Part shown: positions 2,879 to 54,176 of the stretch, piece by piece
How the letters are laid out: each line of letters opens with the position of its first letter
Numbering within the stretch: position 1 is the first letter of the stretch
Virus record (IMG/VR): IMGVR_UViG_3300042554_002914
Length of the DNA: 64,000 nucleotides
Strand: one strand, 5' to 3'
Source of the DNA: a virus
Lineage: Duplodnaviria > Heunggongvirae > Uroviricota > Caudoviricetes
The notes under the pieces: model-generated
Seen by the model: only the letters and a program-made list of their open reading frames with translations
What the model was told of the DNA's origin: nothing
Database searches by the model: none
Program-made: the position numbers and the translations under genes

Positions 2879-3250
2879 TCAGGAAACCGAATAGCCAACA
2901 TAACCGTAACCAACCGCGATGCTAGCATCAACTTTGACTTTCAAGGCGCGGCAGCGGCAGGCTTGCCAGAGCGGCCCCAGTGAATAGCTGCGCTGCTGTG
3001 ACTTAAACCACGACAGGTGCATGTCAAGCTCTTCTGCTGGCCCAAGGTCTTCAAGGCCTAACGTGATACCATGGCGATCGGCAAACCGCCAGGCGGAAGC
3101 GTCAAGGCGCTCACGGTCTTCGGCGGTGGATTTACGGATGACGGATAGGGGCATCGTAGGCGAAACGGTGGGATGAGTGACGGGTAGGTCCCGGCGGCGT
3201 GAGGGAAAAAGGCTGAAATTAAGAATTGAAGTGGTCATATTCGTAATCAT
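2879..3250 (-). CDS. hypothetical protein
   Basis: 123-aa minus-strand ORF. Confidence 0.4.
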   Translation of the reverse strand: MITNMTTSILNFSLFPSRRRDLPVTHPTVSPTMPLSVIRKSTAEDRERLDASAWRFADRHGITLGLEDLGPAEELDMHLSWFKSQQRSYSLGPLWQACRCRALKVKVDASIAVGYGYVGYSVS

Positions 3251-3395
3251 CTAAATCTAGATCCTCCATGGATTGATTCATGAACTCTTTTTCGGTTAGT
3301 GGCATCACACTTTCTGGCAGCGTGGCATACGGATTAGTAGGCCAGCTATTAAGGAGCCGATCTCTAAGCGCATGGTTGACTTTGCGTTTGCCCAT
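3219..3395 (-). CDS. small hypothetical protein (start MGKRKVNH)
   Basis: The ORF track starts this ORF at a GTG inside the promoter -10. The ATG at 3393-3395 after the conserved leader is the more plausible start. Confidence 0.35.
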   Translation of the reverse strand: MGKRKVNHALRDRLLNSWPTNPYATLPESVMPLTEKEFMNQSMEDLDLDDYEYDHFNS

Positions 3396-3480
3396 GGGGA
3401 TTGCGGTTTGTGGAATCTGACTTCCATAGTATAGCACACGGGAGACCGAACCGAACCGAACCCCCCCCCTATGCCAGTTG
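3391..3480 (-). promoter_or_regulatory. promoter plus conserved 5' leader cassette, copy 1 of 3
   Basis: The extended -10 is TGCTATACT. The leader GGAAGTCAGATTCCACAAACCGCAATCCCC-ATG is conserved. The other copies lie at 4711-4795 and 5075-5160. Confidence 0.5.
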
Positions 3481-3491
3481 CTTAATTGTCC

Positions 3492-4352
3492 TTAAATCAA
3501 AGATAAATCAATACCGTGGGTATCATACCACCACTCTTTTGTTTTATCTGGATGTTTGTCTTTAATCTTCAAGTATCGTGAAGTTATTTTACTTTGCCGG
3601 TTAACTTCGTCAGCAAAAAATTGATGCTCAATAGTTTCCCCACTTTTGTAGAGTTGGCGCAATAATTTACGCAAAACATACTCCTGTTTTTGGTTTCCAG
3701 GTTTATACCCAGACTCTATTATTTTGTAGATGGTTTCCTTTAAAGTTTCCGTTGAACTTTTTACTGGATTCCCTAAAATACTTTCAATTCTTTCCAATCC
3801 GAACCCAACATCAATAAACTGTCCAGATGTATTAACAATGTTACCAATTTCTATTCCATTCTTATAAAATTCAGTGCAGTAACCACCGAGTTCACCATCA
3901 CTCCAGACACATTCTGAATCGTATCTAATTTCCAAATCAGGGTAATCGGAATAAAAATACTTCCAAGAGTCATATTTATCTGGATGTATGGTCACATAAT
4001 CTATTTTAACTTTTAGTATATCATTAAGGAACCTCATCCAAAAATGAATGGTTTGTTGCATCGTCAATTCACCAAAGGAAAAAAGACCCAACATATTAAA
4101 ATACAATAAATGAGACCCATCACCAATTTCATCTAAATCCTGTAGGCGGATGCAAGATTGGCTATTAGCGATAGATGTATTATCTGGATTTTTAAACTTG
4201 TCCTTAAACTGTTGCATTCCAGCAGGACAAAATAGGGTAGTGTCGTCATAAGGCTTCACGCTATCGTCCACCTTAAATGAAATGTTATTACTCTCGCAAT
4301 AACTCCGGTACAGGTCTACTACTTCAGTCATTTTTAACGTATGATGAGCCAT
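3492..4352 (-). CDS. alanyl-tRNA synthetase catalytic-core homolog (aminoacylation domain only, 286 aa)
   Basis: TTLFCPAGMQQFKDKF aligns with AlaRS DPTLLFTNAGMNQFKDVF. LGLFSFGE aligns with LGNFSFGD. VGFGLERI aligns with DTGMGLERI. EYVLRKLLRQL aligns with GYVLRRIIRRA. There are no tRNA-recognition, editing or C-Ala domains. Confidence 0.75.
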   Translation of the reverse strand: MAHHTLKMTEVVDLYRSYCESNNISFKVDDSVKPYDDTTLFCPAGMQQFKDKFKNPDNTSIANSQSCIRLQDLDEIGDGSHLLYFNMLGLFSFGELTMQQTIHFWMRFLNDILKVKIDYVTIHPDKYDSWKYFYSDYPDLEIRYDSECVWSDGELGGYCTEFYKNGIEIGNIVNTSGQFIDVGFGLERIESILGNPVKSSTETLKETIYKIIESGYKPGNQKQEYVLRKLLRQLYKSGETIEHQFFADEVNRQSKITSRYLKIKDKHPDKTKEWWYDTHGIDLSLI

Positions 4353-4412
4353 TGCATTGCAAAGTGAATGGTTATGAGTAAATAGTGGTCAGCTAAATTG
4401 TATAAGACATCT

Positions 4413-4716
4413 TTAATCTTCAAAGTTATCCCCAAATTCTCTTCGCAGTACCCTATACTTTTGAAGCCGTCTTTTTCTTTCTTGGCTCGCTTGATACTCA
4501 ATATCAGTTTCTTCACGGTTGAAGTAAGGTATCAATCCGATGATGCACCCATCGTAGTTTTCACACTCTTCAAAATACACATACCCCTTGGTTTTCAATT
4601 CTTGAAACCTCTTAATTGCATCATCAATTGAGCCTGCTAAATGAGCAAAACCAATGCTGCTCCACTTGACGCTAACCATTTTTCTTTTCAGTGTCGTTGA
4701 TGTTGAACTTCCCCAT
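4413..4716 (-). CDS. hypothetical protein (start MGKFNINDTEKK)
   Basis: The ORF extends upstream to the ATG at 4714-4716 directly after the conserved promoter/leader cassette. Confidence 0.45.
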
Positions 4717-4795
4717 TGGGGTTACGGTTTGGGGAATCTGACTCCCATAGTATGGCACCCTCGGCCCCGAACCGAACCTCTCCTATGCCAATTTC
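4711..4795 (-). promoter_or_regulatory. promoter plus conserved 5' leader cassette, copy 2
   Basis: The roughly 90-nt element is conserved and precedes the ATG at 4714-4716. Confidence 0.5.
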
Positions 4796-4848
4796 CCGTG
4801 TGTCACTTTTAATTTAAATCAATACAACCCGGTAAACGACCTAGGAAG

Positions 4849-5079
4849 TCAACCATCCCTCAAATAAGACGTAACAATGACGGGCACCCTATCGGGCCAC
4901 ATATAAGACCCAGTATCCTCCAGACCTTCTATCACACAGGTAACTTCTACTTCACCGCCGTCTGGGGTTTTATAGATCTTAGCGCTACACTCTTCTGCTG
5001 CAGAAGGACTATAAAATGCTAGTCGTTGCTTGGTGGAGTTTGCATCTCTCAAAAACAATTCGGGGCAGAATGAATCCAT
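4849..5079 (-). CDS. hypothetical protein (start MDSFCPELF)
   Basis: ATG at 5077-5079 follows the third copy of the leader cassette. The longer ORF in the track starts inside the cassette. Confidence 0.4.
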   Translation of the reverse strand: MDSFCPELFLRDANSTKQRLAFYSPSAAEECSAKIYKTPDGGEVEVTCVIEGLEDTGSYMWPDRVPVIVTSYLRDG

Positions 5080-5160
5080 TGGGGGTTGCGGTTTGTGGAA
5101 TCTGACTCCCATAGTCTAGCACACGGGAGGCCTAGCCAGACCCCACCTATGCCAATTCTC
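5075..5160 (-). promoter_or_regulatory. promoter plus conserved 5' leader cassette, copy 3
   Basis: The roughly 90-nt element is conserved and precedes the ATG at 5077-5079. Confidence 0.5.
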
Positions 5161-5225
5161 AGGGTGTCACCACCATCCTGCGTGCGATAAATAAATCAGC
5201 ACTACAATAACCACACCATCCAAAA

Positions 5226-5804
5226 TCAACCCGATGGCCCCTTAAGTTTAACCGGAAAGGTAAGTTCCCCAATGTCAACCTTCACCGGTTGTAAATCACC
5301 ATCCTCAATAATCCAAACATTTTTTGCAATATAATCATTTCGGCCCTCTTGCATTGAAAGACCCCTATCAATCCCCACGGTCCTACCTTGATACACCGCA
5401 GTTGAATGATGAACCAACAATTGATTAGTATAGTCTAATTTATACGAAGCATCAACCTCTGACTCAAAATCAATATACTTTTTGTAATCATCTTCATCTT
5501 CAGCAAGAGAACGCACAAAGGCGGATACCCTGTCAAATACCCCCTTACTAACCCATTGAATCTCAACAGGCTCTTTTCTCCCACTTCGAGAAGTAATACA
5601 AATTAGTTCTCCATCAAGATATACCGCATTATCACCTACCCAAGTATCAGTACAGTTCCATGCTGAAACGGGGCGATAAGTAAACCCATTGCTCTCAAGG
5701 TCCACCCAATTATAGCCGCCAAAGATTTCTTCAAAAAATTCACTACCCCCGGTATAAGGGAGTTCTTCGCTATCTAATCTTTGGAGTAGTTCGGATAGTT
5801 TCAT
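5226..5804 (-). CDS. hypothetical protein
   Basis: 192-aa minus-strand ORF. Confidence 0.5.
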   Translation of the reverse strand: MKLSELLQRLDSEELPYTGGSEFFEEIFGGYNWVDLESNGFTYRPVSAWNCTDTWVGDNAVYLDGELICITSRSGRKEPVEIQWVSKGVFDRVSAFVRSLAEDEDDYKKYIDFESEVDASYKLDYTNQLLVHHSTAVYQGRTVGIDRGLSMQEGRNDYIAKNVWIIEDGDLQPVKVDIGELTFPVKLKGPSG

Positions 5805-6539: not shown

Positions 6540-6573
6540 TGGTGGTAGGTGGTGGTGGCCCTGGTAACGAACC

Positions 6574-6603
6574 CACTATAGCACAATGCCAAGGCATCGT
6601 CAA
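6574..6603 (-). promoter_or_regulatory. type-I promoter repeat (TTGACG-N17-TATAGT with TGn)
   Basis: Plus strand reads ctatagcacaatgccaaggcatcgtcaacccc. The spacer contains the palindrome ATGCCAAGGCAT. Confidence 0.6.
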
Positions 6604-8191: not shown

Positions 8192-8962
8192 TCATTTCGA
8201 TTTGTTCTCAAGAAAGGGAGCAATTCCTAGCCAATCGTTATGCTTTTCCGGGTAGAGCACATGGAGATAGCTACTGATGTGCTCAGGAATCCTACAAGAG
8301 AAAGACTTATCGGCTTTCACAAATTCATAGATTTTTGCATAGGTTTCTTGGTCGGGGCGAATGATAATGTCACTGATGCATTTATCACAACCATCGTGAC
8401 AATTATAATAAGGAATGTTCTCAATCTTCAAATCTTCTTTATTAAGAACCCAGGGATGTCCTTTAAGATACTCCAAAAGTTCGGGGAGAATACAGTGTTC
8501 GTTACTGAATGGAGAGCCATTGTAATCAAACCTATAGGGAAGAGTATATGGAACAGCATTTGAATTAAAAATCATATGACCAGAACTATAAAACCAAATA
8601 AGATTCTTTTCAGAAATGTTACCTTCAAGAATCTCTTCATCACTCATTTCGTGGCATTCACAGTCCCAAAATGGATTATTAGTTTTAATGCGTTCAAAGA
8701 ATGAATCCTTAACAAATGTAGGTCGGCACCCCTTAAGAACTTTCAGGTTCCTATCTTTGACCGCATTGATAACTTCAACTACTGCGGAAGTCTTACCTGA
8801 TGGCTCCACCGTGGAAGTCGTCACTTGAAGATAGGCAAGACTCTTATCCACACCGGGAATAATGTAAGATGCAATCTCCGTAAATGTTGTGTGACGGGTA
8901 TTTTCAAATGATGCGAGTTTCATGGTTGGTTGTGGGGAGCGGTTTAGTGTCAATCTGACCAA
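8192..8962 (-). CDS. hypothetical protein, possible P-loop NTPase (VEPSGKTSA)
   Basis: 256-aa ORF with a Walker-A-like SGKTS near the N-terminus. The C-terminus is cysteine-rich. Confidence 0.4.
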   Translation of the reverse strand: MVRLTLNRSPQPTMKLASFENTRHTTFTEIASYIIPGVDKSLAYLQVTTSTVEPSGKTSAVVEVINAVKDRNLKVLKGCRPTFVKDSFFERIKTNNPFWDCECHEMSDEEILEGNISEKNLIWFYSSGHMIFNSNAVPYTLPYRFDYNGSPFSNEHCILPELLEYLKGHPWVLNKEDLKIENIPYYNCHDGCDKCISDIIIRPDQETYAKIYEFVKADKSFSCRIPEHISSYLHVLYPEKHNDWLGIAPFLENKSK

Positions 8963-9261
8963 AGGCTACTATAGCACGGTGCCAGAGCAGGGGCAATCCC
9001 TTCCCCCACCACATCTTGCAGCATGTTCCTAAGACGGCTCATTTCCTCCTTATCACCAGCCAACAGCCATCCAAAGCGAACATAATTGTTACTATATTCC
9101 TCATCCAAAATTGTAAACAGAACTTTAGCCGTCCTCTCTGGGATGACAATTGTAACACCTTTAGAAACTTCCATGAACCCTCCGGGGTTGTGATTTGAGG
9201 TTGAACAAGCACACTATAGCACAATGCTAAGGCCCTGTCAATGCGATCAAGTGTTGTTGGC

Positions 9262-11544: not shown

Positions 11545-11611
11545 GGTTGGTCGGTGGCGGGTAGTGGGGGGGGGGTTGTGGTAGGGGGGAACTGGTTTGC
11601 CGTGGCAACGA

Positions 11612-11697
11612 ACCTACTGTAGCATGGTGCCGGGGCCGTGTCAACCCCTAGCTTCAACCTAACAGTAAGCATGGGGCCGTGGCATCGTCAACCCCCC
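11612..11697 (-). promoter_or_regulatory. tandem pair of type-I promoter repeats
   Basis: Two copies of agcatgg(t/g)gcc..gtcaacccc lie 47 bp apart, upstream of 11164..11544. Confidence 0.55.
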
Positions 11698-11752: not shown

Positions 11753-12280
11753 TCAGTCTACCCTAACAACAATAACCGCACTCTCCAGCAAGGTACCATC
11801 TGGCAACCTGCAAACTACAGAGCTAGTATAAGCCTTGCGCTTGCGATTACCAATCGAAACCACACCTTCCAGCCGATACCCCGTAGGAAAACAACCCTGA
11901 AGTTGCCTCTCCCCGTACAACGTATAAGACTCAATGAGTCCACCCTCGCTATGGCAAATCGAAACCGCCGGAGCTTTGAATCCGATAATAGTATCATGAA
12001 CTCCAACCTTATGACAAATACCCCGACAATCTTCTAGGTTAGGGGAAATATATTGTTGCCATTGCCCTACAGTTAGAGCCAAGGCGTTTTCTTTCCAGTG
12101 GGCTGTAATCGGCGGTTTTTGCTTTCGTGACTTTGGTGGTTTTGAAGTTTTTGTGGTCTTGGGGGTGCGAAGGCTAAATGTTTGCATAGGTGCAGTTTGG
12201 TTGCTGTTTGGTTGTGTACCTACCCTAGCATGATGCCGTGGCAGTGTCAACCCCCATAGCTTCAACCAAACAGCAAGCAT
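11753..12280 (-). CDS. hypothetical protein
   Basis: 175-aa ORF lying downstream of tandem type-I promoters. Confidence 0.45.
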   Translation of the reverse strand: MLAVWLKLWGLTLPRHHARVGTQPNSNQTAPMQTFSLRTPKTTKTSKPPKSRKQKPPITAHWKENALALTVGQWQQYISPNLEDCRGICHKVGVHDTIIGFKAPAVSICHSEGGLIESYTLYGERQLQGCFPTGYRLEGVVSIGNRKRKAYTSSVVCRLPDGTLLESAVIVVRVD

Positions 12281-12306
12281 GGTGCCGGAGCAGTGTCAAC
12301 CCCCCA
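12221..12306 (-). promoter_or_regulatory. tandem pair of type-I promoter repeats
   Basis: ctagcatgatgccgtggcagtgtcaaccccc is followed by aagcatggtgccggagcagtgtcaaccccc. Confidence 0.55.
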
Positions 12307-13018: not shown

Positions 13019-13051
13019 GTTGGTGACTGTTTGGTGACTGTTTGGTTATAG

Positions 13052-13186
13052 ACCTATCCTAGCATGGGGCCATGGTATCGTCAACCCTGTAGCTTTAACC
13101 TAACAGCAAGCATGGTGCCGGAGCAACGTCAACTCCCCTTAGCTTCAACCAAACGGCAAGCACGATGCCGGGGCAGTGTCAACCCC
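13052..13186 (-). promoter_or_regulatory. triple tandem type-I promoter repeats
   Basis: Three copies lie at roughly 50-bp spacing, upstream of 12335..13018. Confidence 0.55.
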
Positions 13187-13413
13187 CTTATTTTGCCCTC
13201 CAGTTTTTACAATTCCAGTCCCCTGGGGTTTTGATGAATGTACCATTTGTGGCAATCCCACTTTTAACAATTAGCTTCCCATTCGGTTTACCTTTAGGTT
13301 GATTAGGAATAGGAATCACAATGGAACTGGCCCTAATGCCAGAACAATTACCAAGATTAAATCCCTGATAACTCCAATACCTGCAGGTTTTACACTTTTT
13401 CATTTTTCCGCTC

Positions 13414-20576: not shown

Positions 20577-20828
20577 ATGATGCTTCTGCGATAAACTTGA
20601 AGACTAACCTTCGTTCCTCTTCAGTAGTGGATGTGGCATTAGCCATTGAAACTGAACTCAACCACTCAGTATAGAGTGTCTGCCCCAAGTCAACAAAACG
20701 TTTTTGAGAAAATTCAGTCATTGGTTTTTCTGTAGGGGGGTTGTTCTGGGGTTGTTGGTGGAACGTGTCCATTATAGAAAGAAGCGTGTTACTCTGGGGC
20801 AACGTGCCAGTTGGTCAAGCGTCTTCAA

Positions 20829-21983: not shown

Positions 21984-22756
21984 CAGTCAAAACAAACCCC
22001 ATACCCTACCTATGCCTCCAACCATCTTCGCAATGCAATCAGCATTGGATTCTTCCGGTGCTAAAATAGCGGATGTCCTGCTGTCAGCAAGTACCAAATC
22101 GCCGTCAAAATTGAAAGACAGGTATAAGCCGGGAATCAAACAAAGTTCCCCGTGGTGATCCCCGTGATTCAAAAAGTTCTCAATTTTGTCTTTCATGGCT
22201 GGTTGCGGCTAGTTAAAATTACGGTAAGTTCAAAATCTGGAGCAACATCTTTAACTCAATTCGTTCCCCATCATTATAATTACCGTAGAACCCTTTAAAT
22301 CTATCGAAAGCACCCATTTGGACTGCAATACTAACAGCAGACAGGTAGGATACTTTACCGTGAGGATCAATAACCATGAGCAATTGCCCTGGCGGGATCT
22401 TATCGGCTTTAACTAAGGGTTGATCGGAAAATTCCATGGTTTTTGAGGTTGTGAACTGAGGTTGTGAACTAATGGCCCTTAATTAAGCTGGACCCTATAC
22501 GCGACCAACAACACCCATATACCGATCAAATTCGTCCATGAAAGCAGTAACGTCATCCTCGTAAGAAGAATCAGGATCCACCCAATCAAGTTGAACTTTT
22601 TTACTTACATTGTCTGAGAAAATCAAATCAAACTTAGCTTCCCAAGATAGTTTAGAGTCGAAGATCCTCCTAGCCTCGCTGTAGATTAAATGAAGCCCAT
22701 CGAAGGTTGGTTGGTTTGTCATTGGTTTTGGTAGGGAGTGGTTGTTGGCTGGTAGC

Positions 22757-22800
22757 GAACCCATCTTAGCACAGTGCCGGGGTCAGTGTCAACCCCTGTG
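22757..22800 (-). promoter_or_regulatory. type-I promoter repeat
   Basis: Plus strand reads cttagcacagtgccggggtcagtgtcaacccc. Confidence 0.5.
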
Positions 22801-36994: not shown

Positions 36995-37109
36995 ATGGGA
37001 CCGGCAGGATTTGAACCTACAACCTCTCCTTTATCATAGGAATTTTAATTGCTGATGTATCTTTGACAAGATAACTTTCTTTAGCGCTCTGTCGTTGAGC
37101 TATGGTCCC
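36995..37109 (-). ncRNA. tRNA-like RNA gene in which a roughly 40-nt insertion replaces the anticodon arm
   Basis: Minus-strand reading is GGGACCA-UA-GCUC-AACGACA-GAGC, then the insertion, then GUAGG-UUCAAAU-CCUGC-CGGUCCC-A. The insertion holds a UAUCUU-GUCA-AAGAUA hairpin and the motif CAGCAAUUAAAAUUCC. No canonical 7-nt anticodon loop is present. Confidence 0.5.
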
Positions 37110-37216: not shown

Positions 37217-37346
37217 TCGAAGAGGCAAGATTCGAACTTGCGTATGGCGGTTCCTTTTAGCGTATTGGGGTATTGCTGAACTATCTAAGGTATCACTAGA
37301 TGGTCTTTTTGCATTACCGCTGCCTTACCCACTTGGCTACTCTTCG
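37217..37346 (-). ncRNA. tRNA-like RNA gene with a roughly 57-nt insertion between anticodon-stem halves GCGGU/ACCGC
   Basis: CGAAGAG-UA-GCC-AAGUGGGUAA-GGC-A-GCGGU precedes the insertion, which holds an AUCUAG..UUAGAU hairpin and CAGCAAUACC. ACCGC-CAUAC-GCAAG-UUCGAAU-CUUGC-CUCUUCG-A follows it. Confidence 0.5.
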
Positions 37347-37592: not shown

Positions 37593-37710
37593 TAGGGGAA
37601 GAAGGAATCGAACCTCCGTCACGTCCGTATGATGGAATTTTTGTAATTGCTGTCTGCACCTTATTCAAGGTAACCGTTAATTACGTGTGCTGCCACCGCA
37701 CTATTCCCCT
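37593..37710 (-). ncRNA. tRNA-like RNA gene in which a roughly 43-nt insertion replaces the anticodon arm
   Basis: AGGGGAA-UA-GUGC-GGUGGCA-GCAC-A precedes the insertion, which holds a UUACCUU-GAAU-AAGGUG hairpin and CAGCAAUUACAAAAAUUCC. GGAGG-UUCGAUU-CCUUC-UUCCCCU-A follows, with a perfect 7-bp acceptor. Confidence 0.5.
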
Positions 37711-50148: not shown

Positions 50149-50994
50149 TCAATCTTCGTCGTTATCGCTGCCATCGGTATCGTACCAGCTATCGTCCCCA
50201 TCGGTATCATCCTCGATGTCATCATCCCCATCGGCATCATCATCACCACCGGTACCGTACCAGCCATTGCCGCCATCGGTATCTTCCTCGATATCGTCAT
50301 CATCACTACCGGCACCATCCCCATCAGTATCCCTAAGTCTCAAAACTCTGGCTGATCTATAATTGAAGGTCTTGTTTGGGTCCCCACCTAATTTTTTCAT
50401 CCTGTTATATTGAGCTTCAATCTCTCCAAACTCTACCATTTTAGCCAACAAGTATAACCTCTCACATGAGGAAATAAAAGTAGTGGCCGACCCGCAGAGA
50501 TAAGTCAAACGGGCTTCTTCCATAATTTTTTCTTTATCATCGGGGTTATCATCGAGCCAAACAAGCATCTTTTTATACGCGTCTTTGCTATTCTTGTGCC
50601 AGATCTTGCTAGATGTTTTTTCTTTCCCTTTCCAAGACGGTGATGGAACTTCTAGCCAATCTGGATATTCCCCTATGAAGCGACTTCGGACGATTCTGGT
50701 GATACTTTGAGTGTGCCTGGCCCCGGAAATTACCCTAATCTCTTCAATCAGGTCCTTGGCATCTTGAAATTCTTTGAATAGCTTTTTAAGACTCCTCATT
50801 GCATTAGGGTAGTTATCACTCCCCATTGCTTCGGTGAAGGCATCAAGCTTTTCTTTGTACCGGGCAAGGAGTTTAAATCTGGATTGTATTACCCTGATAG
50901 CATTAATTAGAAGCTTAGTGTCGGTTAGCTTCATTAGTTCGTCTTGAACTTCAAGGAGATAAGTCCTTGAGTATTTCATATTTTGTATCGTCAT
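50149..50994 (-). CDS. hypothetical protein with a poly-acidic (Asp-rich) C-terminal tail
   Basis: 281-aa ORF. The final roughly 60 aa are D/G/E-rich, and the plus-strand overlapping ORFs there are mirror-image His/Arg-rich artefacts. Confidence 0.45.
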   Translation of the reverse strand: MTIQNMKYSRTYLLEVQDELMKLTDTKLLINAIRVIQSRFKLLARYKEKLDAFTEAMGSDNYPNAMRSLKKLFKEFQDAKDLIEEIRVISGARHTQSITRIVRSRFIGEYPDWLEVPSPSWKGKEKTSSKIWHKNSKDAYKKMLVWLDDNPDDKEKIMEEARLTYLCGSATTFISSCERLYLLAKMVEFGEIEAQYNRMKKLGGDPNKTFNYRSARVLRLRDTDGDGAGSDDDDIEEDTDGGNGWYGTGGDDDADGDDDIEDDTDGDDSWYDTDGSDNDED

Positions 50995-53676: not shown

Positions 53677-54176
53677 TTTGTTATAGGTTGATTGAGTGAG
53701 GGGTGAATTGAATAGCTATCGTAACACAAATTGCCCTACCCACGTAGAACAGTGTGCCAGTTGGCCAAGTGTCCACACATGGGTTAGTCTTGTGGCTGTT
53801 TTGCCATGTTCAGTTGTGCAATATGAAGAAGTTTTTCCTTCCTTGCTTTTTGCTTTAGGTAGATAACAAAAGAAATATTCATTTTGCCACCTTCACATTT
53901 TTTGCAAGGGCGATGAGTTTGGTTATACCAATCTGCGTACTCTTGTTTTGCAACATCGGTATCATAAGCGACACCGCGATAGACTGCTTTAGACATTTTT
54001 TTCCTCTATGGTGAAATCATGAGTCCCGTTCCTTCGGAAGGCGATTGCGTTTCTCGTCGTCCTACTTGCGTCCACTGTGTGTTAATAGCGGATGAACGAT
54101 GGTAGTTTAGGTCTCTGATATCTTGTATAGCTTATAATACCCATCTATTTAGAAATCAGGTTCACTCAATACCCCG

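Follow-up and report, generated by a model that had tools for sequence, protein, structure and literature searches.

The 64-kb window analyzed here is the whole 64,000-nucleotide stretch of a caudoviricete genome (IMG/VR record IMGVR_UViG_3300042554_002914), coded almost wholly on the minus strand, and it contains three related repeats, which we call cassettes A, B, and C. Read 5′ to 3′ on the minus strand, they occupy positions 5172–5076 (A), 4806–4713 (B), and ≈3491–3392 (C), in a locus whose order is a 192-aa gene, cassette A, gene A, cassette B, gene B, a gene resembling alanyl-tRNA synthetase (AlaRS), cassette C, and gene C. Each cassette reaches from just past the upstream stop codon to an ATG that closes it (at 5079, 4716, and 3395, respectively), a span of 90 to 99 nt in all three. 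Across ≈90 nt the cassettes are 74 to 78% identical to one another, and the identity rises to about 90% in the half that runs from the −10 element to the ATG. The 25-mer GGAAGTCAGATTCCACAAACCGCAA matches the window on the minus strand only, at 3401–3425 (no mismatches), 5086–5110 (one), and 4722–4746 (three), and has no match in 100 shuffles; an earlier interpretation made from the letters alone, hereafter the sequence-only reading, had thus correctly placed three copies of ≈90 bp. The 20-mer TGCTAKACTATGGRAGTCAG likewise occurs in the window at the three cassette sites and nowhere else.

The cassettes share one layout. From 5′ to 3′, a first box (box1, GTGACAC, degenerate in C) is followed by a linker of 8 to 10 nt, a second box (box2, AAYTGGCAT), a G/C-rich spacer, an extended −10 element, the sequence ATGGRAGTCAG, then ATTCCMCAAACCGYAAYCCCC(A), and finally the ATG. 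In cassette A (5076..5172), box1 GTGACAC lies at 5164–5170, box2 (AATTGGCAT) at 5149–5157, and the −10 (TGC plus the hexamer TAGACT) at 5113–5121; the predicted transcription start is the G at 5106, giving a leader at 5080–5106 ahead of the ATG at 5077–5079, and the 30-nt spacer comes with a predicted stem-loop at 5117–5154. Cassette B (4713..4806) has box1 GTGACAC at 4800–4806, box2 (AATTGGCAT) at 4785–4793, the −10 (TGC plus CATACT) at 4749–4757, a predicted start at G 4742, and its ATG at 4714–4716; its spacer is also 30 nt long, with a predicted TGGCAT/GTGCCA stem at 4753–4790. In cassette C (≈3392..3491), a degenerate box1, GGACAA, is found at 3486–3491, box2 (AACTGGCAT) at 3471–3479, the −10 (TGC plus TATACT) at 3428–3436, the predicted start at G 3421, and the ATG at 3393–3395, whereas the spacer, with a run of nine Gs and three GGTTC repeats, measures 37 nt and carries a predicted stem-loop at 3432–3476. 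The extended −10 elements read TGCTAGACT in A, TGCCATACT in B, and TGCTATACT in C; the single −10 and leader that had been ascribed to all three copies are exact for C, and A and B depart from them. The upstream motifs had been described in a similarly mixed way. CCTATGCCA (= TGGCATAGG) is indeed common to A, B, and C, but CACGGGAG occurs in A and C only and CCGAACC in B and C only, and the quoted string "CACGGGAG..CCGAACC..CCUAUGCCA" is the plus-strand reading of a minus-strand element, so that the strands had been confused in a description of three otherwise real copies.

Small genes do follow the cassettes. Gene A (4849..5079, 76 aa), the main open reading frame (ORF) of gene B (4413..4679, 88 aa), and gene C (3219..3395, 58 aa), all on the minus strand, have no match in Pfam or PHROG. 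Gene A carries an internal deletion relative to two related genomes (L004 and L019, described below), and gene C is conserved in a third (L001) from the cassette ATG onward. The three are not consecutive, as had been stated, because the AlaRS-like gene (3492..4352, minus strand, 286 aa), which lacks a cassette of its own, stands between cassettes B and C. Its product is the class II catalytic core of AlaRS alone, with PF01411 at residues 29 to 125. The G+C content of this gene is 35% and that of gene B 39%, compared with 46% for the window, and its DNA is 83 to 90% identical to AT-rich viral contigs, a similarity that stops at 3472, inside box2 of cassette C. Relatives of the AlaRS-like protein (43–63% protein identity) are present in many large viral contigs; the gene is interrupted by stop codons in L001, and its 3′ fragment alone is left in L004. 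Upstream of cassette A lies the 192-aa gene (5226..5804, minus strand, phrog_4518), which L004 has lost and which is longer in L019, its end there lying within box1; a locus search seeded with its protein gave no result.

The cassettes bear directly on where these genes begin. The predicted ORFs had been suspected of extending through the cassettes, and this holds for A (ATG 5112 in place of the true ATG 5079) and for C (GTG 3437 in place of ATG 3395). The situation in B is different: in this genome, the cassette ATG at 4716 opens an upstream ORF (uORF) of 14 codons, MGKFNINDTEKKNG plus stop (4672..4716, minus strand), whose stop overlaps the start of gene B. The cassette-B ATG is in frame with gene B in L001, and the uORF arises because an A-run in the window is one base longer than in L001 and L019. 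This longer run, at the N-terminus of gene B, reflects either an assembly error or a genuine frameshift accompanied by coupled re-initiation. The upstream ATG within ACTATGG was rejected as the true start, being in frame in A only and lying upstream of the predicted transcription start.

Each cassette had been proposed to consist of a promoter and a 5′ leader, and this part of the sequence-only reading is supported by both anatomy and comparison. About 16 canonical promoters in the window, with TTGAC(A) at a distance of 16 to 18 nt, use the same −10, TGCTAnAnT, as the cassettes. On the minus strand their form is GGGTTGAC(A)-N17-TGCTAnAnT, and GGGTTGAC itself is counted 21 times on that strand versus twice on the plus strand. 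The canonical promoters have leaders of 25 to 70 nt, mostly without a Shine-Dalgarno sequence, and the C/A-rich cassette leaders, in which no Shine-Dalgarno sequence was found in A, B, or C, match this general type: the last 20 nt are 84% A+C in the cassettes and 83% in 17 other leaders of the window. Upstream of the −10 the two classes diverge. A −35 hexamer sought 16 to 18 nt from the −10 of the three cassettes matched at best one to two of six positions, and the box stands instead at a fixed distance from the −10, as it does across a wider family. Further promoters of the cassette class are found on the minus strand at 20771..20812 (AACTGGCAC, 27 nt, TATAAT, and a C/A-rich leader) and at 53718..53762 (GGACAC-N6-AACTGGCAC, 30 nt, (TGT)TACGAT, a leader, and an ATG).

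The canonical promoters have peculiarities of their own. A YGGCAY or TGCC-NN-GGCA palindrome, unusual for sigma-70, is conserved in their −35/−10 spacer (minus strand: 6566–6603, 8959–8996, 9204–9241, 11607–11644, 12213–12250, 13047–13084, 22750–22795, and others), and G-runs and C-runs around the −35 are frequent in these palindrome-bearing promoters (GGGGTTGAC...CCCC). Promoter-like tandem units of ≈50 bp (TTGACA...GGCACCATGCTTGCTG...) are also repeated head to tail two to three times in intergenic positions at 11644–11696, 12203–12304, and 13085–13187.

The family to which the cassettes belong is widespread among cyanophages. The 21-mer GTGACACCYTGAGAAYTGGCA, of which cassette A holds an exact instance at 5150–5170, is found without mismatch in 18 IMG/VR viral contigs of 36 to 52% GC. 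There, a looser box, [G/A][T/G]G[A/C]CA[C/G]-N6-8-AACTGGCAC-A, recurs on one strand, up to eight to nine times per 10 to 15 kb, and is always intergenic (contigs L043–L059); box1 often contributes the final codons and stop (VTP plus stop; ...GTG ACA CCC TGA) of unrelated upstream ORFs. These contigs hold small unknown genes, homing endonucleases, and an anti-restriction gene, and L047, the sole contig tested, shares about 72% identity with T4-like Synechococcus phages (S-SRM01, for example). With a 34-mer that includes the box, 80 phage records are matched, 75 of them cultured cyanophages. Syn9 has a variant form, GTGACAC-N7-AGTGTCCAC followed after 28 to 29 nt by a −10, upstream of small genes at 43 to 49 kb (L060); the variant box2 of Syn9 reads GTGTCCAC.

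The architecture of the family is regular over 54 to 58 non-redundant instances (n = 54 for the spacer, n = 58 for the start region). The spacer between box2 and the −10, a TAnnnT or CATACT hexamer, is 31 nt in 30 of 54 instances, 30 nt in 12, and 32 nt in five, so that 47 have a length of 30 to 32 nt. Counting from the hexamer, 57 of 58 instances carry a purine at position 7 and 47 of 58 a T at position 8, and the ATG follows 22 to 33 nt past the hexamer. In A, B, and C these two positions are G-T, and the ATG lies at 32 to 33 nt. All three window copies contain the two-part box, A as the exact 21-mer, B as an exact box1 with AATTGGCAT, and C as a degenerate box1 with AACTGGCAT, although box2 ends in T (TGGCAT) rather than C in each of them. 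Cassettes A and B obey every family rule, and the CATACT hexamer of B serves as the −10 in other family members too. The repeat exists, belongs to a conserved family of fixed architecture, and coincides with the breakpoints of mosaic exchange described below.

This regularity suggests how the cassettes might work. A host RNA polymerase of the sigma-70 type would recognize the extended −10 (TGnTAnACT), and the two-part box GTGACAC-N8-AAYTGGCAY, about 30 nt upstream of it, would replace the −35 hexamer, presumably by binding polymerase or an accessory factor. The distance of 30 to 32 nt is held despite a free spacer sequence, which argues for a geometric constraint between protein and DNA, and GTGCCA, being the reverse complement of TGGCAC, suggests binding by a dimer. 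Because a purine-T pair is conserved 7 to 8 nt after the −10, transcription would probably start at the purine 7 nt past it, the G of GTCAG (5106, 4742, and 3421), and would produce a leader of roughly 27 nt that is C/A-rich and devoid of a Shine-Dalgarno sequence, like most leaders of the phage. The G/C-rich stem-loop between the box and the −10 may also damp read-through from upstream, as a terminator or insulator; a few family members, such as one in L043, have a genuine T-tract terminator at the stem-loop.

A related possibility, which would refine this scheme rather than exclude it, is that the cassettes form a separately timed class of early or middle promoters, whose partly palindromic box, GTG(A/C)CA-N10-TGGCAC, is bound by a dedicated host or phage factor, with the TTGACA promoters as another temporal class. 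The sharp spacing, the complementary half-sites, the conservation of the box over lineages of 36 to 52% GC, and the placement of the Syn9 variant upstream of small genes all speak in its favor. However, no candidate for the dedicated factor emerged, the 64-kb window has only five to six sites of the cassette class, and its copies end in TGGCAT, not TGGCAC. We hold such timing to be possible but on balance improbable. Two other readings of the box were dismissed. A sigma-54 reading of TGGCAC was rejected for want of a −12 GC element at the proper distance; cyanobacteria are not known to have sigma-54. The conserved ≈22-mer followed by G-runs had brought to mind a promoter for a T7-like or Syn5-like single-subunit polymerase, which was set aside because the carriers resemble T4-like cyanomyoviruses and a sigma-70-type −10 stands at a fixed distance. 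T4-like cyanomyoviruses are not known to encode an RNA polymerase.

Doron et al. 2016 (ISME J 10:1437) reportedly described a novel early-gene regulatory element, together with host-like middle promoters, in T4-like cyanophages. We take the box family to be, probably, that early-gene element. If so, the element would resemble the cassettes in being a cyanophage box/spacer/−10 layout without a −35; the window phage differs in not being evidently T4-like, and box2 of the window differs in ending in T. A literature search for the box sequence, whose reach stopped short of the text of Doron et al. 2016, returned nothing relevant.

The segment just downstream of the −10 has a distribution of its own. 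The 20-mer TGCTAKACTATGRRAGTCAG appears downstream of good −35 boxes in unrelated metagenome contigs (L006/L007/L018/L021/L023, L009/L015, L010/L011, and L012/L022), and TATAGTATGGGAGTC and CATACTATAAGAGTCAA are present in Syn9. Because of these look-alikes, "ATGGGAGTC / AGAGTCA" after the −10 may represent a more general start-region consensus.

The sequence-only reading had assigned the leader a different role, in which a shared hairpin acts as the operator for an RNA-binding translational repressor, or as an RNase site, and coordinates the three genes post-transcriptionally. The hairpin, GGRAG-UCAGA-UUCC, can be drawn in all three copies and is one pair longer in B, with folding energies of −4.1 (A), −7.0 (B), and −4.6 (C) kcal/mol. 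It is, however, no more stable than shuffled sequence (z = +0.9, −0.2, and −0.2, respectively), and an alignment of ten related copies revealed no compensatory change in this helix or in that of the spacer stem, shuffles scoring equally well. In three of the ten copies (L001_a, L019_a, and L004_a), the 3′ arm ATTCC has given way to CAACC or CAATC while the 5′ block persists; conservation in related phages, which had been named as a touchstone for a regulatory role, thus extends to the promoter block but not to the 3′ arm of the hairpin. An Rfam scan of the whole window produced no match in the cassette region (3000–5300), and with z values about 0 and no compensatory pairs the cassettes do not behave as a structured cis-regulatory RNA of the Rfam type. 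It is true that AGTCAG is invariant across all related copies and that read-through transcription, if it occurs, would place the hairpin upstream of the start codon. The invariant half of the hairpin, ATGGRAGTCAG, nevertheless coincides with the start region of the promoter family and appears to consist of the −10-to-start stretch and the first transcribed bases; as transcription is predicted to begin at the G of GTCAG, the hairpin would lose most of its 5′ arm in transcripts initiated at the cassettes. We consider a translational operator or processing site very unlikely, and the cassettes reveal no new element of post-transcriptional control.

A second predicted structure, the spacer stem, joins box2, in the form TGGCAT(AGG), to the extended −10, in the form (CCC)GTGTGCTA, around the G/C-rich spacer, and in the predictions the stems overlap the TGCTA of the −10. 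On the minus strand its folding energies are −25.6 (A), −15.1 (B), and −21.2 (C) kcal/mol. Both hairpins must be regarded as unproven because the ten copies hold no compensatory change and shuffles do as well.

We compared the locus with three independent related genomes obtained from pattern scans, at 80 to 93% identity: L001/L034, which come from a 279-kb viral contig; L004/L008/L020; and L019, which comes from a 113-kb contig. Mosaicism was read from BLAST maps and directly from the sequences. The metagenome scan with the 20-mer yielded mostly unrelated promoter look-alikes, L008, L019, and L020 being the only relatives among its matches, and a scan of a genome collection with the same 20-mer gave four unrelated metagenome-assembled genomes, which we judged to be chance matches. 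In every relative the locus differs from the window, and the differences lie at the modules.

Cassette C illustrates the pattern. Where the window has this single copy, L001 and L019 have two cassettes around an extra gene of about 63 aa. Copy C corresponds to the upstream cassette through ...TATACTATGGAAGTCAG and to the downstream cassette from ATTCC... onward, and is thus a chimera of two cassette types, L001_a/L019_a and L001_b, joined at AGTCAG/ATTCC at 3417; the similarity of the window to the three relatives ends at this very position every time. The spacer of cassette C is itself variable: in the window (3441–3470), L001 (1125–1155), and L019 (8205–8230), the G-run has a length of 9, 7, or 5 and the GGTTC repeats number 3, 3, or 2, and the box-to-(−10) distance among the relatives is 37, 35, or 28 nt, in all cases off the 30- to 32-nt optimum.

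Genes A and B have changed promoters in a comparable way. In L001, the promoter ahead of gene B is canonical (TTGACG-N17-TGCTACAAT), and it is not until AAACCGTAACCCCAATGG that identity with cassette B sets in. In L019, box1 and box2 are retained ahead of gene A, the spacer and leader differ, and the −10 is TGCTATAAT; in L004 the gene A promoter is deleted. The breakpoints of the promoter swaps of genes A and B (L019 and L001) fall inside the leader. L004 is also without the 192-aa gene, gene B, gene C, and most of the AlaRS-like gene, and cassettes or their remnants lie at most of its junctions. A canonical sister promoter, TTGACG-N17-TGCTATAGT (6575..6603, minus strand), is a mosaic breakpoint too: at this position L004 has a 1.7-kb insert bounded by two promoter modules, of which one is nearly identical to the promoter of the window and the other is of a different canonical type, and the similarity between L001 and the window breaks exactly at its −10. 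The cassettes themselves are mosaic, in that the apical spacer of A recurs elsewhere in L004_a. The breakpoints identified are at 3417, 3439, 4731, 5096, and 6572. Comparison of these genomes shows the modules apparently doubling as joints for homologous recombination, since they share 20 to 50 nt of near identity, with the genes between them deleted, inserted, or swapped.

Breakpoints at repeats could also betray a dedicated site-specific recombination system, comparable to integron attC sites or the ends of mobile elements, in which case the repeats would not primarily be promoters. The cassettes do flank single-gene slots, box1 provides stops, in two reading frames, for a variety of upstream ORFs, and the imperfect inverted repeats of the window copies fold much better on one strand than on the other (−15 to −26 versus −7 to −9 kcal/mol). 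However, this strand asymmetry vanishes in the wider family, the breakpoints include canonical promoters, and no recombinase was seen among the neighboring genes scanned. The crossovers, moreover, vary by event among the −10-to-start stretch, the leader, and box2, which fits homologous exchange and not a fixed site, and a dedicated system of this kind seems to us hardly credible. A simpler proposal is that the copies are neutral leftovers of a recent local duplication, without present function. In the relatives, the 20-mer core is restricted to this locus, with two copies in the 279-kb contig, and degenerate remnants such as L004_b occur. Yet the intact copies keep the box, spacing, −10, purine-T, and ATG at the positions seen in more than 50 unrelated family members, and it is where the gene arrangement has changed that cassette remnants decay, so we think it quite unlikely that the copies are inert.

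Overall, we favor the view that the cassettes are promoter-plus-leader modules for the gene that follows each of them and that they double as homologous-recombination joints, in the manner of the promoter-early stem-loop (PeSL) cassettes of T4-type phages; we put the probability of this view at roughly 0.7. Several points weigh against it. Promoter activity of the cassettes is something that we infer from their sequence, there is no −35, and the factor that presumably reads the upstream box is postulated. The spacer of C, at 37 nt, falls outside the 30- to 32-nt range, and box1 of C is degenerate, although C follows the other rules of the family. The spacer stem has modest z values (−1.7, −0.9, and −2.1 for A, B, and C), lacks compensatory substitutions in the ten related copies, and is present in about half of the wider family (z < −1 in 26 of 54, absent in about ten). 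Finally, the locus is covered by only three independent related genomes, and some local rearrangements use microhomology inside genes, as does the L004 deletion at AAGTTCAAC.

The resemblance to PeSLs (Arbiol et al. 2010, PMC2839356; Comeau et al. 2014, PMC4122927) is considerable. Both are intergenic modules of ≈100 bp that fill the interval between the stop codon of one gene and the start codon of the next, and both cluster in variable regions before genes without known relatives. PeSLs combine a sigma-70-type promoter with a stem-loop of G-runs and C-runs that may overlap the −10, an arrangement that is predicted for the cassettes. As with the cassettes, the places where close relatives differ by indels or replacements coincide with the modules, some of which are chimeric: where one genome has a gene between two PeSL modules, another has just one, chimeric, module (PMC2839356, PMC4122927). 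The differences are equally clear. The cassettes do not have the −35 and AT-rich upstream region of PeSLs, their upstream region being G/C-rich, whereas their sister modules in the window do have TTGACA-N17-TGCTAnAnT; they carry instead the conserved two-part box about 30 nt upstream of the −10. Their leaders are without a Shine-Dalgarno sequence, their stem-loop is without statistical support, and the window phage has a bacterial-type beta clamp and is not evidently T4-like. PeSLs are defined in part by experimentally shown promoter activity, terminator activity, and mini-circle formation. A search of cyanophage S-PM2 for PeSLs found few (PMC4503421).

Other repeated elements upstream of phage genes are less similar. 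The SAS and ESAS repeats of Cluster K mycobacteriophages (Pope et al. 2011, PMC3203893) are, like the cassettes, found in one orientation just upstream of some start codons, at times with an imperfect inverted repeat further upstream, and their function is unproven. The SAS differs in its length of 13 bp, its position within a few bases of the start codon, and a presumed link to translation (PMC3203893). In the cassettes, by contrast, the conserved blocks (box, −10, and start region) are promoter-like, and the part next to the ATG is a generic C/A-rich leader. A phage moron, in the sense of Juhala and Hendrix, is a single accessory gene that brings its own promoter, has been inserted between others, and departs from them in G+C content. 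The AlaRS-like gene and gene B, at 35% and 39% in a window of 46%, recall morons in this respect, but a moron is defined by the inserted gene and not by a shared, repeated regulatory module that serves as a joint.

A broader view, which we hold only tentatively and think doubtful as it stands, is that the module is a horizontally mobile regulatory unit passing between unrelated cyanophage lineages, namely T4-like myoviruses and this large phage with aminoacyl-tRNA synthetases and a DnaN clamp. It would then be a pan-cyanophage equivalent of the PeSL with a recognition logic of its own, combining a factor in place of the −35, stops for the upstream ORF, and a preferred joint for gene exchange. 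If the favored view of promoter modules that double as joints is correct, three gene starts are corrected, genes A, B, and C become separately transcribed accessory genes, and a factor that reads the box is implied. PeSL-style gene shuffling would also extend beyond T4-type coliphages and vibriophages into a large cyanophage-like genome, and the layout of box, 30 to 32 nt, −10, and purine-T start could offer a means of annotating both transcription units and mosaic boundaries in metagenomes of cyanophages. Compared with the sequence-only reading, what is added is the role as a recombination joint and the link to a widespread cyanophage promoter architecture.

Taken as a whole, the window looks like an accessory part of a large cyanophage-like genome, with genes for CysRS, the DnaN clamp, two RNA ligases, a CCA-adding enzyme, NAPRTase, and tRNAs. 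The best matches of DnaN are to cyanophages, at 27 to 32% identity; a megablast of 20 kb against cultured phages found no match, and no T4 core genes were seen in the window, the structural genes lying outside it. A glutamine riboswitch (glnA RNA, 46 bits) on the minus strand at 54023–54100 is consistent with a cyanobacterial host. Three Rfam tRNA matches on the minus strand, at 36996–37109, 37217–37346, and 37593–37710, lie within 700 bp of sequence and contain insertions of about 42 to 57 nt in the anticodon-loop region; they were not called by ARAGORN and may represent tRNA genes that are interrupted or contain introns. At ≈1650–1950, a non-coding stretch that is AT-rich and dense in repeats, with TATAACGATAGTGTTATACTGTTATGGCATTATGACATTATAGTGTG and GTGTCAAGGTGCC repeats, is conserved in all relatives (L001 1–260, L004 6150–6420, and L019 6400–6900) and could be an origin or regulatory region. 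Within coding sequence, a 75-nt tandem repeat at 50156–50305 comprises two copies that are 76% identical, and the ORF that hosts it (50149–50994, minus strand) encodes an acidic protein.

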